A stretch of 64,000 nucleotides of DNA from Candidatus Culexmicrobium cathedralense. Its GTDB lineage: Archaea; Thermoproteota; Methanomethylicia; Culexarchaeales; Culexmicrobiaceae. The position numbers were made by a program, and so were the translations under genes. The stretch spans positions 512,001 to 576,000 of the forward strand of contig JANZKC010000001.1 in the NCBI GenBank assembly GCA_025061115.1. Reading direction: 5' to 3'. This document shows, piece after piece, positions 32,319-37,728 of the stretch. The notes below the pieces were generated by a model, which was not told the DNA's origin, did no database searches, and worked only from the letters and a program-made list of their open reading frames with translations. Numbering within the stretch: position 1 is the first letter of the stretch; every line of letters begins with the position of its first letter.

Positions 32319-32567
32319 GGCGACCAAGCAGAAAATAACGCATGAACTAATAAATATTATAGTGCAAAGCAAAAGCAATAAAACCACCAAAGCATAGAGT
32401 GAAAAACATTTAAAACTTTAAATAATATCAAGCAATAAAGCAGCGAAAAATGAAAATAAAACCTAACTGCTAGAAATAGATGAGCAAATAGTTCAAAGCA
32501 TGCAATAACTTTAAATACTTTAATGAGAAGGATTATAAGGAACAAATGTCAGGTGGAGGTGAGGTTA

Positions 32568-32867
32568 GTGTCTTCCGAAATTTACGAAGAAAATGGCGTC
32601 TTGATAGTTAAAGGCAAGGATGTAGTTAACGTAGCTTCAGCACTATCTTCAGAAACTCGATTGAAAATACTAGAGTTCCTAAGAGGAAAGGAGGCCGACA
32701 TAGGGCAAGTTGCAGACTTCATCAAGCAAAGCAAGGCCAATGCAAGCGCCCAAATGCGAATACTCGAAAAGTACCACCTAGTCAAAACCATGTACAAGCC
32801 TGGAATAAGAGGAGTCAAGAAGGTCTGCACGACAGACATTAAAGAAGTGAGATTAATTTTAGAGTAA
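32568..32867 (+). CDS. ArsR-family HTH transcriptional regulator
   Basis: ALSSETRLKIL..L and SKANASAQMRILE...LV. GTG start follows a GGAGGTGAGG SD. Confidence 0.85.
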   Translation: MSSEIYEENGVLIVKGKDVVNVASALSSETRLKILEFLRGKEADIGQVADFIKQSKANASAQMRILEKYHLVKTMYKPGIRGVKKVCTTDIKEVRLILE

Positions 32868-33048: not shown

Positions 33049-34693
33049 CTACTTGCGCCTAGCCAAGCTATATTCCAATGCAGCCTTCACAAATCCCAAG
33101 TACGGCGGCGAAGGTCTTCCCGGCCTGGACTTGAACTCTGGATGCGCCTGAGACCCTAGGAAGAAGGGGTGGTCCGGCAATTCTATGAACTCTATCCTCC
33201 TTCCATCAGGGCTCCTCCCGGAAAATACGAGTCCATGGCGCTGAAGGACATCCCAGTAGGCTGGATTAACTTCGTATCTATGCCTATGACGCTCATAAAC
33301 AATGGTCTTGCCATACAGCTTGTGCGCAAGCGTTCCAGGCTCCAAAACTATTGGGTGAGCCCCCAGCCGCATGGTCCCTCCCTTCATATCAATCTTCCTC
33401 TGCTCCGGCAGGAGATCTATAACTGGATTAGGAGTGTTAGGCGCATTCTCAGTGCTATTGGCATCCTTCAATCCAACGACATTTCTAGCAAACTCTATAA
33501 CTGCCATTTGAAAGCCAAAGCAAATACCCAGAAATGGCATTCCATTTTCCCTAGCAAACTTAACAGCTAGAATTTTCCCCTCAGTACCCCTAGGCCCAAA
33601 GCCTGGCGGAACTAGAACGCCATCATATCCGCGGAGCATTTCAAGCTCTTCAGGAGATTCCTCAAAGACCTCAGTTTCTATCCAATCTATTTTAACTCTA
33701 GTTTTAAGAGCAGCTCCAGCATGCTTTAAGGCTTCATTAATGCTGATGTACGCGTCAGCAAGCTTAGCATATTTACCGCACATTGCAATCTTCACTTCGT
33801 GCTCAAAGTTCTCAAAGGATGCCACCACGCTCTTCCACTTGCTCCAATCAGGCGAATTCAACTTCAACCTCAATCTCTTGCAAATGTAATCTCCCATGCC
33901 CTGCTGATCGAGTATCAGCGGAACCTTGTAAACGCAGTCTACAGTGTAGGACGAGAAAACCGCTTCCTGAGAAACGCTCCCGTAAAGAGCAATTTTACGC
34001 TTAGCTGAAGGCTCGAGGGGCACGCTGCACCTTGCAACTATGATGTCCGGCTGAATACCTATCCTCCTAAGCTCATTAACGCTGTGCTGGCAGGGCTTAG
34101 TCTTCTGCTCTCCAGTTACATCTAATATCGGAACTAATGCGACGTGAACGAACAGCGTGTTCTCGTAACCCTCCTCAAGCCTCATCTGCCTAATAGCCTC
34201 CAGAAAAGGCAAGCCCTCAATGTCACCTACAGTGCCTCCAACCTCAACCAGAACGATGTCAACATTGCTTCGCTTAGCTGCAAGCCTAATTCTCCTCTTA
34301 ATCTCATCAGTTATGTGAGGAACCACTTGGACGCATGCACCCAAATAGTCGCCTCTACGCTCCCTTTCAATCACGGTCAAGTAGATCTGCCCAGTCGTGA
34401 TGTTATTGTCCTTGGGCAAGTTCACGTCCAGGAATCGCTCGTAATGTCCCAGGTCCAAGTCTATCTCTCCGCCATCTTCGGTTACGAAAACTTCCCCATG
34501 CATGTATGGATTCATGGTTCCAGCATCAACGTTCAAGTACGGATCTATCTTGACGGCGGTTACGCTATAACCTCTAACCTGAAGCATCTTGCCAATTGAC
34601 GCTGCAACGACGCCTCTAGGGGGGAGCTCAAAGCAAGCTCCCTTTCCCCACGCTTGAAAGCACGCCGCCAGTTATGAAGATGTACTTGGTCAA
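33049..34693 (-). CDS. pyrG: CTP synthase, split by a 28-nt intron-like insertion: join(34693..34644, 34615..33049), 538 aa
   Basis: TTG at 34693, after a GGGGTGGTGA SD, gives [17 protein letters not shown]. Removing 34616-34643 continues the frame as [15 protein letters not shown]...[15 protein letters not shown], with [22 protein letters not shown] and HPE downstream. Confidence 0.95.
34616..34643 (-). other. Putative bulge-helix-bulge (BHB) pre-mRNA intron in pyrG
   Basis: The pre-mRNA reads GCGU-GGGG-AA^A-GGGAGCUU-GCUUU-GAGCUCCC-CCCU-AG^A-GGCGUC. This gives a 4-bp central helix GGGG/CCCU, two 3-nt bulges and an 8-bp intron stem. Cutting after nt 2 of each bulge restores GTG GGG AAA GGC GTC. 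Confidence 0.88.
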
Positions 34694-34754
34694 TTCACCA
34701 CCCCTCTACTAAACGAGTTATAATTTGAGATGGGAGCATAAATAAGTCACCGCC

Positions 34755-35570
34755 CTAAGCGAAAGCCTCAGGCGGCAATTCAGCTATTGGAGGAAGCCTC
34801 CGCTTATGCTCAGAAAATTCAATCATGGACTTAACCCTCAACACGTAATTCAACGGCAAATTCAACTCGGCAGACACTTCACTTGGAGGCATCTTCCTAT
34901 CTACAAGAAGGTGGAGTATTGGATCAATTACATCGTACGTGAGTCCAAGCTCCTCCTCAGCCAGGTGCCCCCTCCAAAGTCTAGGGCTGCTGGGCTTCTT
35001 GATTATGCTCTCGGGAATCCCCAAGTATTCGCCCAGCCTTCTAACTTGGGTCTTATATAAGCCTCCAATGGGAAGAATGTCAACTCCACCATCACCATAC
35101 TTGGTGAAGTACCCCAAGAGAAGCTCGCTCCTATCTCCAGTTCCAATCACAAGCCTACCCTCAAGATTAGCATAATAATATAGAAGGCACATCCTTATTC
35201 TAGCCCTCAAATTTCCAACCGGAACTTTAGCATCAAACCTGAAATTAGGAATTGAACTTGAAAAGGCTTCGAGAATGCTTGAAATATCTATTAAAGTATG
35301 CTTAACTCCAAGCCTTTCAGCAACTAGCAGAGCATCATCAACATCCTGCTTAGGAGTCACTTCAGGGTCAGGTAATATCAATGCGAGAACTCGATCAGGG
35401 CCAAGCGCTTCAACGCACAAATATGCAGTGACCGTCGAGTCCAAGCCTCCACTTAGACCTATGACCGCGCCTCTTATTGGAGGCTTAACGTGCTGCCTAA
35501 TAAAACTTGAAACTGCGTCAACCACGACTTCTGCATTAATTTCCAGCATGCGCGCAGCCCGACCAAACAT
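34755..35570 (-). CDS. nadE: NH3-dependent NAD+ synthetase
   Basis: GLSGGLDS, GNLRARIRM, GYFTKYGDGG, LYKTQV and K.SSP.LW. Confidence 0.95.
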   Translation of the reverse strand: MFGRAARMLEINAEVVVDAVSSFIRQHVKPPIRGAVIGLSGGLDSTVTAYLCVEALGPDRVLALILPDPEVTPKQDVDDALLVAERLGVKHTLIDISSILEAFSSSIPNFRFDAKVPVGNLRARIRMCLLYYYANLEGRLVIGTGDRSELLLGYFTKYGDGGVDILPIGGLYKTQVRRLGEYLGIPESIIKKPSSPRLWRGHLAEEELGLTYDVIDPILHLLVDRKMPPSEVSAELNLPLNYVLRVKSMIEFSEHKRRLPPIAELPPEAFA

Positions 35571-35612
35571 CTGCAGTAAACTTAAATTAAATCCTTCGAA
35601 GCCATAGGCAAG

Positions 35613-37299: not shown

Positions 37300-37728
37300 A
37301 TGGAAAGAATCGAGGAACTTAAGAAGAGAGGCGAACTTATAGTAGAAGCGCCAATTGAAATTCTCCGAGAAGCAGCTAGGATAACCCTTGGAGTAGGAGT
37401 TAAGGAGTGCAGGGAAGACGATAACATAGTATTCACCTATGAAAGCCCTGTATGCCCGCCCAGAATAATTGCAAAGGAAATTGAGCCGGGAAAATACCAC
37501 ATATTATCATCAAATAAGTGCTCAATCCCAGACTGCCCATACTGGGAGAGATGCGCGAAACTAAGCACCGAAAGACTGAGAATATACGAAATAGCCCTTA
37601 ACAAGCTGCTTGGAAAGGGTAAGATTCTCAAGGCAAGGTACGAGTGGCTGCCAGAGAGAGTTAAAGAGGAGGAGCTAGAAAAGCTCATTGACAGGCTAAT
37701 TAGCAGACCCAAACCAGAAGAAATGTAA
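37300..37728 (+). CDS. Hypothetical Cys-containing protein (142 aa)
   Basis: ATG 37300 follows a GGGAG SD and TATA TTTAAAAG at about 37263. The longer ORF from 37204 overlaps the sRNA. Motifs C...CPP...KCSIPDCPYWERC. Confidence 0.7.
   Translation: MERIEELKKRGELIVEAPIEILREAARITLGVGVKECREDDNIVFTYESPVCPPRIIAKEIEPGKYHILSSNKCSIPDCPYWERCAKLSTERLRIYEIALNKLLGKGKILKARYEWLPERVKEEELEKLIDRLISRPKPEEM

Follow-up and report, generated by a model that had tools for sequence, protein, structure and literature searches.

A candidate bulge-helix-bulge intron in the CTP synthase gene of Candidatus Culexmicrobium cathedralense, with related micro-introns in the class Methanomethylicia

Certain messenger RNAs (mRNAs) of eukaryotes, namely those of XBP1 and HAC1, are spliced through the IRE1/RtcB pathway, with RtcB acting as the ligase in metazoans. 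Regarding the archaea, an intron in the cbf5 pre-mRNA of Crenarchaeota was reportedly described by Watanabe et al. in 2002, and the splicing endonuclease EndA of Haloferax volcanii is known to be a homodimer. The cbf5 pre-mRNA intron of Crenarchaeota is also the subject of sections of Yokobori et al. (2009; PMC2738675), which present introns in other protein genes as only predicted at that date, in a rudivirus study and in a book chapter on Sulfolobus genomes. Passages of Schwarz et al. (2020; PMC7714728) describe a bulge-helix-bulge (BHB) intron in the 5' untranslated region of the HVO_1309 mRNA of Haloferax volcanii and state that, besides it, cbf5 holds the only intron of an archaeal coding sequence; the IRE1/RtcB splicing of XBP1 and HAC1 is mentioned in part of PMC13149111. 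In this work, we consider an insert of 28 nucleotides (nt) in pyrG, the gene for cytidine triphosphate (CTP) synthase, on the minus strand of a 64,000-nt stretch of the Ca. Culexmicrobium cathedralense genome (G000:C1:512001-576000, called here the window). Judging from its sequence and from that of its relatives, this insert is very probably an archaeal BHB intron, lying in the protein-coding part of the one CTP synthase gene that the genome has.

As read from the open reading frames (ORFs) and from the sequence, the insert, at 34643..34616 on the minus strand, interrupts pyrG after 17 codons. Upstream, an ORF of 21 residues (34693..34628) starts with TTG at 34693 and is stopped within the insert; its first 17 residues are the beginning of the P-loop region of CTP synthase. 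Downstream lies an ATG-initiated ORF of 512 residues (34587..33049), in which the Pfam domain CTP_synth_N is aligned only from profile position 25 of 265 and the GATase domain is also matched (6e-109 and 2e-36, respectively, when exon 2 is scored). Excision by coordinates leaves 1617 nt, equal to 538 codons and a stop, with the junction ...SSVGK/GVVAASIGK and an intact P-loop. When set against pyrG of the complete genome G013, from a relative in the class that has no intron in this gene, the spliced junction aligns ungapped, with identities at 10/10 residues on the left and 6/10 on the right. The P-loop is divided between the two exons, and the insert must be removed if a functional protein is to be made. 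The elements of the gene and of the predicted RNA structure are the following, all on the minus strand:

34695..34706, minus strand: putative purine-rich Shine-Dalgarno-like stretch, GAGGGGTGGTGA, read from the sequence, one base ahead of the TTG
34644..34693, minus strand: pyrG exon 1, with the TTG start, 16 codons and the first two nt (AA) of Lys17
34646..34649, minus strand: central helix H, exonic strand GGGG, pairing with CCCU at 34621-34618; paired in 10/10 orthologues
34643..34645, minus strand: 5' bulge AAA, invariant in 10/10; cut predicted after its second nt, between 34644 and 34643
34616..34643, minus strand: 28-nt candidate bulge-helix-bulge intron, also found, free of indels, in contigs from further DNA runs
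34622..34642, minus strand: intron stem-loop h', with arms 34642-34635 and 34629-34622 forming 8 base pairs (bp), the last one U-G, and the loop at 34634-34630
34618..34621, minus strand: central helix H, intronic strand CCCU; its outer pair is G-U in seven orthologues and G-C in three, the other three pairs being G-C in 10/10
34615..34617, minus strand: 3' bulge AGA, ARA in 10/10; cut predicted after its second nt, between 34616 and 34615
33049..34615, minus strand: pyrG exon 2, from the last nt of Lys17 to the stop; 521 codons and the stop

The third nt of the AGA bulge (34615) completes the codon of Lys17, which makes this a phase-2 intron. Many of these elements had been put forward in an earlier reading of the window made from its letters alone (the sequence-only reading), which placed 28 nt at 34643..34616, with the insert letters exactly as found here. 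The unspliced 21-residue peptide that it described corresponds to the ORF 34693..34628, which ends at a stop inside the insert; the purine-rich stretch at 34706-34695 stands ahead of the TTG start for which it had claimed a strong Shine-Dalgarno sequence, and its full enzyme of 538 residues was reproduced by removal of the coordinates. Likewise, the 4-bp helix GGGG/CCCU, the AAA and AGA bulges and the 8-bp stem lie where it had drawn them, and its rule of cutting after the second nt of each bulge restores the exact protein junction, VGK/GVV.

One way to dispense with splicing is to suppose that the enzyme starts at Met27, as the 512-residue product or as one part of a two-piece enzyme, and that the 21-residue ORF is irrelevant or regulatory. 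The downstream ORF is indeed ATG-initiated and holds most of both Pfam domains. What it lacks is positions 1-24 of the CTP_synth_N profile, and with them the GGxxSSxGKG P-loop, which we take to bind adenosine triphosphate. Moreover, the missing 17 residues are encoded just upstream, with their own start and Shine-Dalgarno-like stretch, and they are identical or nearly so in 10/10 orthologues despite saturated synonymous sites; residues 18-26 (GVVAASIGK), in the frame of exon 2 upstream of Met27, are conserved as well. We regard a short or two-piece enzyme as extremely improbable. Across the class, the exon-1 peptide is conserved in 39/39 loci read.

The case for an intron is carried mainly by the comparison with relatives. 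The order Culexarchaeales is represented by 12 genomes, counting the genome studied here, and pyrG was matched in ten of them, the two without a match being 57% and 45% complete. In 10/10 of the pyrG genes found, which belong to families f1-f3, an insert stands at the same codon, with lengths of 28, 26, 24, 25, 26, 22, 27, 21, 21, and 21 nt. Invariant flanks (GGGG AAA ... CCCY ARA) enclose a hairpin that varies in sequence, length, and loop: its stem has 5-9 bp in the motif parse, and the distinct stem sequences include GGGAGC, GGGAAC, GGAAGC, GGAGGA, and GGAGG. Identical intron sequences occur in records titled Ca. Culexarchaeum nevadense, Ca. Culexmicrobium thermophilum, and "Methanomethylicia archaeon". 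In 10/10 inserts, frame 0 runs into a stop. A ribosome would reach the downstream frame by a +1 shift in three genomes, by a +2/-1 shift in two, and by read-through of a stop in five, and the insert of G004 has stops in all three frames. A single type of excision at the RNA level would account for all ten inserts.

These frames bear directly on translational recoding, that is, on a frameshift, a hop such as that of phage T4 gene 60, or read-through, with the insert kept in the mRNA. For the gene in the window such an event is conceivable, in that the +1 frame is open through the insert and one +1 shift could link the two ORFs; in addition, the 3' bulge is AAA in 5/10 orthologues and thereby repeats the Lys codon that precedes the insert, much like the take-off and landing sites of a hop. 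In the other 5/10, however, the window included, the triplet for landing would be AGA and not AAA, and the recoding mechanism would have to differ among close relatives in the manner just described, with every frame of G004 closed by a stop. Frameshifting would also add 7-9 residues directly after the GKG of the P-loop. Finally, recoding leaves unexplained the helix and bulge geometry, the covarying stem, and the recurrence of the same geometry in cbf5, in hypD, and at two other pyrG sites, all described below. For these reasons we judge it very unlikely.

With regard to the RNA structure, the minimum free energy (MFE) fold of 75 nt computed with ViennaRNA (-32.7 kcal/mol) holds the GGGG/CCCU helix, the AAA bulge, and the 8-bp stem. 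The central helix is exactly 4 bp, lengthened by one U-A pair in the MFE fold, and 40/40 of its cells are paired across the ten orthologues; the 5' bulge is flanked by a helix on both sides (H and h'), the 3' bulge by H on one side only. Covariation was assessed on a MAFFT alignment of the ten orthologues (A1), with shuffled sequences and slid registers (1-3 columns) as controls. The BHB half-structure is paired in 98.2% of the A1 cells and the h' stem alone in 97.1%, and pairing falls to 47-76% when the 3' partners are slid by 1-3 columns. Changes on both sides of a pair occur in 5/8 stem pairs, for a total of 14 cells, and 0/500 shuffles reach that, a figure that is not a probability and that overstates independence, as the ten intron-bearing genomes are related to each other. 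Within this evidence, more weight can be placed on the slid controls and on how many distinct stem sequences there are. The sequence-only reading had suggested looking at pyrG of relatives for the intron and for compensatory changes, and both are there, the former in 10/10 genes of the order and the latter in the stem.

RNAalifold, applied to A1, also proposes distant exon-exon pairs (columns 9-13/73-77 and 19-21/65-67), broken in 2-3 of the ten sequences, which could be a weak, offset outer helix, or chance. Columns 11/75 and 20/66, which are third-codon positions, are among those with changes on both sides.

Further indications come from the codons that supply the exonic strand of the central helix. 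The combination GTG GGG AAA is used in 10/10 intron-bearing genes and in 0/29 genes of the class without the intron, where 17 other synonymous combinations occur, and the third positions beside it vary among the ten intron-bearing genes. Together, this freeze of the codons and the near-saturation of synonymous sites elsewhere argue that the exon bases of the central helix are probably held at the RNA level. As to the protein, the proportion of nonsynonymous differences in exon 2 (pN) is 0.075-0.185, compared with 0.69-0.88 for synonymous ones (pS), and the only computable ratio of the corresponding substitution rates (dN/dS) is 0.049, which places pyrG under strong purifying selection. Exon 2 is 65-89% identical to that of relatives, and the gene in the window has no stops in it.

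The genome is a metagenome-assembled genome (MAG) of 25 contigs and 1.98 Mb, with an estimated completeness of 99.99%, and pyrG has one match in the whole of it. DNA from other sources carries the same insert. With 0 gaps it is contained in record 1 of run X2 (9.3 kb, spanning the whole of the stretch compared) and in record 15 of run X3 (34340-35600); record 29 of run X8 (34613-34763) covers the insert and extends only 3 nt past its 3' end, so that it does not count as bridging under a 31-nt rule. Runs X2, X3, and X8 come from different coded samples and studies, and X1 was omitted as the possible source. Runs X4 and X8 leave parts of the stretch uncovered, and no conclusion is drawn from these gaps. 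Thus, the presence of the 28 nt in DNA, which the sequence-only reading had asked to be confirmed, is borne out by contigs of other runs that carry them without indels, and the situation that would have spoken against it, a second intact pyrG beside a decaying copy, is not what the genome holds: the gene is single, under purifying selection, and has an intact exon 2. As a separate observation, record 7 of run X2, a contig of 175 nt from a sediment metagenome, matches exon 1 only (34644-34693, with 5 differences) and then diverges, a pattern that a relative with another intron sequence would give.

Such data are of importance for the possibility that the gene is dead or dying, with CTP obtained otherwise, or that the insert is an artefact of assembly or binning. 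The suspicion has some ground, considering that a MAG with an estimated contamination of 7.65% is at hand, that gene callers would report a truncated pyrG, and that two other loci of this genome look like plain frameshifts. Opposed to it are the contigs of three other runs, each with its own sample and study codes, that carry the insert without indels, and the ten species of three families in which an insert stands at the same codon and exon 1 is conserved together with its start codon. A dead gene is further contradicted by an exon 2 that is intact over 521 codons, by the excess of pS over pN, and by the finding of no second pyrG in the genome to take its place. This explanation is already largely refuted, and we give it hardly any credence.

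Around the gene, nadE (NAD synthase, Pfam 2e-81) lies at 34755-35570 on the same strand, with its 3' end 62 nt upstream of the pyrG start, and a gene for a small helix-turn-helix protein of the ArsR family (32523-32867, plus strand) lies downstream of pyrG on the opposite strand. The host is an archaeon of hydrothermal vents.

The same genome offers an internal control for the cut rule. Its cbf5 holds a 20-nt intron at G000:C2:254526-254545 on the plus strand (locus L054:1371-1390), with the same motif and the same cut rule, located between the first and the second base of the catalytic Asp codon (HGGTL/DPKV); the TruB_N match begins just downstream of it. A boundary at that position of the Asp codon has been published for crenarchaeal cbf5, as the relevant passage of PMC2738675 states, and since the rule reproduces it, the rule is validated on a known case. 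Within the class, the cbf5 intron was read in 22/30 loci and is absent in six (families f5 and f9), with two loci unparsed. Swapping the strands of its core, CCCU-AGA ... GGGG-AAA, gives the core found at the pyrG site of the window, from here on site A (GGGG-AAA / CCCU-AGA).

A third gene of the genome, hypD (Pfam HypD, 5e-132), has a 26-nt intron at G000:C2:34688-34713 on the minus strand (locus L142:1689-1714), in the motif HVCG/THE. It was read in 12/30 loci of the class, specifically in 4/8 of the order and 8/8 of family f7, with lengths of 20-28 nt and covarying stems, and it is cleanly absent in the other 18/30, which include the close relatives G003 and G006-G008. Such a patchy distribution suggests repeated loss or gain.

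In the sister family f7, pyrG itself is interrupted at two other positions in 10/10 genomes (loci L021, L028, and L056-L063). These sites, B and C, fall in DPY/IN (19-27 nt) and NPY/MH (30-33 nt), about ten codons apart, and have a common core, ACCC-AUA ... GGGY-ANA. Pairing amounts to 97.8% and 96.4%, against at most 60% and at most 52% in slid registers, with modest covariation. It looks as though a single type of intron had gone in twice, at two exon contexts (...CCC-AUA...) that resemble each other. None of sites A, B, and C is occupied in the 19 loci read of families f4, f5, and f8, and in the table of the class the other pyrG matches are single and without internal stops; G046, flagged there with "1 TGA", reads uninterrupted.

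The cut rule gives exact junctions also at the hypD site and at pyrG sites B and C. At all five sites, the exon strand comes from codons of invariant residues: the GK of the P-loop, the region of the catalytic Asp, the Cys-Gly-Thr of HypD, and the two Pro-Tyr motifs. If only there the exon half of the recognition structure is guaranteed, this would explain why invariant motifs act as hosts.

To place these introns in the context of the genome, a census of BHB motifs was made. The strict scan required a helix H of 4 bp, an h' of at least 5 bp, at most one G-U pair, and an intron of at most 160 nt, and it returned 15,423 motifs in the 1.98-Mb genome, so that the bare motif is common. Restoration of an ORF, used alone as a filter, gave counts that equalled those of the mis-phased controls (for example, 716 versus 711, 741, and 712); it does not discriminate because hairpins between adjacent genes also pass it. 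The census then relied on homology to G013, whose pyrG is uninterrupted, and its reach is that of genes with a conserved G013 homologue and of introns up to 160 nt (strict) or 75 nt (relaxed). A first homology filter was discarded, as nearly all of its 252 "spanning" matches were gapped or had identity on one side only. When 10 ungapped residues on either side, with at least 50% identity on both, were required, three protein-gene junctions were left in the strict scan: pyrG, cbf5, and hypD. The relaxed scan (h' of at least 3 bp, length of at most 75 nt) produced 280,925 motifs and 121,022 fused peptides, 62 of which passed a looser filter; good identity on both sides was limited to pyrG, cbf5, hypD, and one intron of a transfer RNA (tRNA) for Gln, which served as a positive control, and the remaining 58/62 junctions were judged false by eye. 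Significance resides in the motif, the exact restoration of a conserved junction, and the conservation in relatives, taken together.

An independent search for genes split into separate high-scoring segments, made with 3,456 G013 ORFs against this genome, returned 11 candidates, of which those in cbf5 and hypD are real. The rest were rejected. Two in a ribosomal-protein operon (C2 ~243.9 and ~244.7 kb) derive from antisense ORFs and from ordinary differences in the N-terminal length of S17 and L24, one at C2 394.8 kb from an antisense ORF, and one at C2 ~364.2 kb from an ABC ATPase that is fused in one genome and split in the other, while two at C4 21-24 kb lie within the ribosomal RNA (rRNA) operon. 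The two loci alluded to above as frameshifts account for the last three: a permease-like gene with several frame changes at C2:414,600-415,850 on the minus strand (two candidates) and a small gene at C1 ~37,335-37,343, also on the minus strand, whose A-rich run contains a -2 frameshift. No BHB motif fits either of them, and they look like plain frameshifts that stem either from decay or from assembly error.

Beyond this genome, an exact scan of the genome contigs for the site-A pattern gave 20 matches; six are archaeal and correspond to loci already in the set, and the 14 bacterial ones have no pyrG context and are about as many as estimated by hand for chance. No interrupted pyrG outside the class was found in 101 genomes of the phylum (counting the one studied here; pyrG in 99), with a query that starts at residue 27 and is blind to the N-terminal site, so that the absence of site A elsewhere rests on the exact-pattern scan. 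The sequence-only reading had guessed that the lineage carries more mRNA micro-introns, and cbf5 and hypD in this genome, along with the two pyrG sites in the sister family, agree with it. Its placement of the splicing "outside cbf5" holds for the host gene, pyrG, and needs amending for the genome, whose cbf5 also contains the classical intron.

The enzymes expected for this type of splicing are encoded in the genome. There are two genes of the EndA family (PF01974), situated at G000:C1 ~462.9-463.5 kb and C2 ~433.8-434.3 kb. One encodes a protein of 186 residues, closest to the catalytic subunits of the heterotetramers of A. pernix and P. aerophilum (3p1z_B, 3e-55; 2zyz_B, 9e-46). The other encodes a protein of 174 residues that aligns to EndA of M. 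jannaschii (1a79) and has KEPA in place of KEHS, with a Pro replacing the His that we take to be a catalytic residue of the M. jannaschii enzyme. This pair fits a putative (alpha-beta)2 EndA, the type reported to accept relaxed motifs. There is one RtcB gene (C2:508224-509531; match 6e-181). ARAGORN predicts 47 tRNA genes, 22 of them with an intron; the "introns" of 637 and 1895 nt that it assigns to a tRNA-Phe (G000:C2:258860-259571) and a tRNA-Ser (C4:125827-127817) are doubtful, and may represent introns of unusual length, perhaps containing an ORF, or else false joins.

Several points weigh against the interpretation of the insert as an intron. The fold is not exceptionally stable, with a z-score of only -1.8 and 8/200 shuffles at least as stable. 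Its MFE version brings the exons together in a different, distant register and adds a U-A pair at the expense of the initial A of AGA; a free 3-nt bulge on the 3' side is a reading that is not in the MFE fold. The outer helix h is essentially absent, with only one U-G pair possible beside the 3' bulge, and the motif is therefore classed as the relaxed HBh' form, in which the 5' site is enclosed by a true bulge and the 3' site is located where the central helix ends; the sequence-only reading had arrived at the same weak outer helix and the same class. Cleavage at the 3' site would need an endonuclease for relaxed motifs, a tolerance suggested here by the similarity to crenarchaeal enzymes. To these points must be added the relatedness of the ten genomes and the contamination of the MAG, both mentioned above, and the nature of the sequencing data: among the listed runs holding this DNA, none is recorded as RNA, and it is from the DNA that we infer splicing.

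The lack of a proper outer helix at the 3' site is also what could favor removal of the insert from RNA by some other pair of nuclease and ligase, or by a self-cleaving element, in place of EndA and RtcB. As for the latter, the inserts are very small, 21-28 nt, and we know of no class of self-splicing ribozyme of that size. As for the former, the insert matches EndA substrates exactly in its geometry, which also yields the cbf5 boundary known from publication. (Alpha-beta)2 and epsilon2 EndA enzymes cut non-canonical motifs, according to PMC5829648, and hetero-oligomeric EndA cleaves relaxed cbf5 motifs, as reported in PMC2738675. Nothing points to a different nuclease, and removal by such an alternative route appears most improbable.

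Returning to splicing by EndA and RtcB, the process would start in the pre-mRNA, where GGGG, which encodes part of Val15-Gly16 of the P-loop, would pair with CCCU near the 3' end of the intron to form the 4-bp central helix. The 8-bp hairpin of the intron would stack on one side of this helix, leaving the splice sites in the AAA and AGA bulges. The alpha-beta EndA would then cut after the second base of each bulge, with formation of 2',3'-cyclic phosphate and 5'-OH ends, and RtcB would ligate the exons, so that the Lys17 codon is whole again and the reading frame gives an enzyme of 538 residues with the GKG of its P-loop intact; the 28-nt intron would be released, possibly as a circle. In this scheme, the sequence, its foldability, the selection on the structure, the need for removal, and the presence of the enzymes are shown by the data, while cleavage, ligation, and the circular product are drawn from what is known about EndA and RtcB and from the precedent of cbf5.

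A broader and more speculative idea is that the pyrG, cbf5, and hypD sites represent a small family of "exon-anchored" BHB micro-introns that is, or was until recently, mobile at the RNA level in Methanomethylicia. Mobile introns of this kind would insert where invariant codons supply one strand of the core preferred by the endonuclease; they would spread when the EndA/RtcB reaction runs backwards and its product is reverse-transcribed and recombined, and they would be lost by recombination with the complementary DNA of spliced mRNA. We entertain this idea because of the strand-swapped cores of pyrG and cbf5, the common core of the two sites in f7, the patchy distribution in hypD, and the location of all five sites in catalytic or ligand-binding motifs, and we regard it as possible and, on balance, doubtful. 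If true, it would tie the expression of CTP synthase, of a hydrogenase maturation protein, and of the H/ACA pseudouridine synthase to the capacity for tRNA splicing.

No described intron of pyrG or hypD was found in the literature searched, a scope outside which supplements and subscription journals fall, and the words intron, pyrG, splicing, and pseudogene have 0 occurrences in the main text of the Culexarchaeia description (PMC9723716). Elements of this kind are already known, the precedent being the BHB intron within the coding sequence of archaeal cbf5, and pyrG and hypD would be new host genes. These findings add two candidate host genes to cbf5 and bring the intron sites to five in all across one class, with comparative and structural support and with cbf5 as an internal control. 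They raise the questions of how far mRNA splicing of the endonuclease type reaches in archaea, how these introns originate and are lost, and why they are placed in invariant catalytic motifs, as well as whether an essential pathway depends on the tRNA-splicing machinery. On the practical side, automatic gene calling will turn pyrG, hypD, and cbf5 of these lineages into truncated genes or pseudogenes, and such miscalled genes would wrongly imply CTP auxotrophy or a missing hydrogenase maturation in metabolic reconstructions made from MAGs.

Finally, it is useful to set the pyrG intron beside the systems mentioned at the beginning. As in XBP1 and HAC1, a short, frame-changing mRNA intron would be removed independently of the spliceosome, by an endonuclease that cuts in small stem-loops; the eukaryotic system differs in that it uses another endonuclease (IRE1) and another RNA motif, and it works as a regulated stress switch. 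With the HVO_1309 intron, the pyrG intron would share a host RNA that the splicing endonuclease cuts although it is an mRNA and neither a tRNA nor an rRNA; that intron, however, belongs to a euryarchaeon and resides in an untranslated leader, where it interrupts no codons. Closer in structure are the BHB introns of archaeal pre-tRNA and pre-rRNA, which share with the pyrG intron the 4-bp helix, the 3-nt bulges 3' of the helix, the cuts after the second base, and, presumably in the case of pyrG, the pair EndA and RtcB. Unlike them, the pyrG intron has an mRNA as its host, in which the frame must be kept, and it has neither a tRNA body for recognition nor the outer helix h.

The nearest counterpart is the crenarchaeal cbf5 intron, which is also a short element of the BHB type in a coding sequence, splits the codon of an invariant functional residue, and has a mostly relaxed motif; in both cases, the hosts have a hetero-oligomeric EndA, and the distribution is lineage-specific, with gains and losses. 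The differences concern the host gene, which for pyrG belongs to nucleotide synthesis, the host lineage, the Culexarchaeales of the class Methanomethylicia in the sense of GTDB, and the number of insertion sites, since pyrG has three separate ones across the class; moreover, splicing of cbf5 has been shown experimentally, whereas we infer that of pyrG. The pyrG intron is not part of the cbf5 intron family proper, as it does not stand at the catalytic Asp codon of cbf5; it is an intron of the same kind, in a gene that is new as a host.

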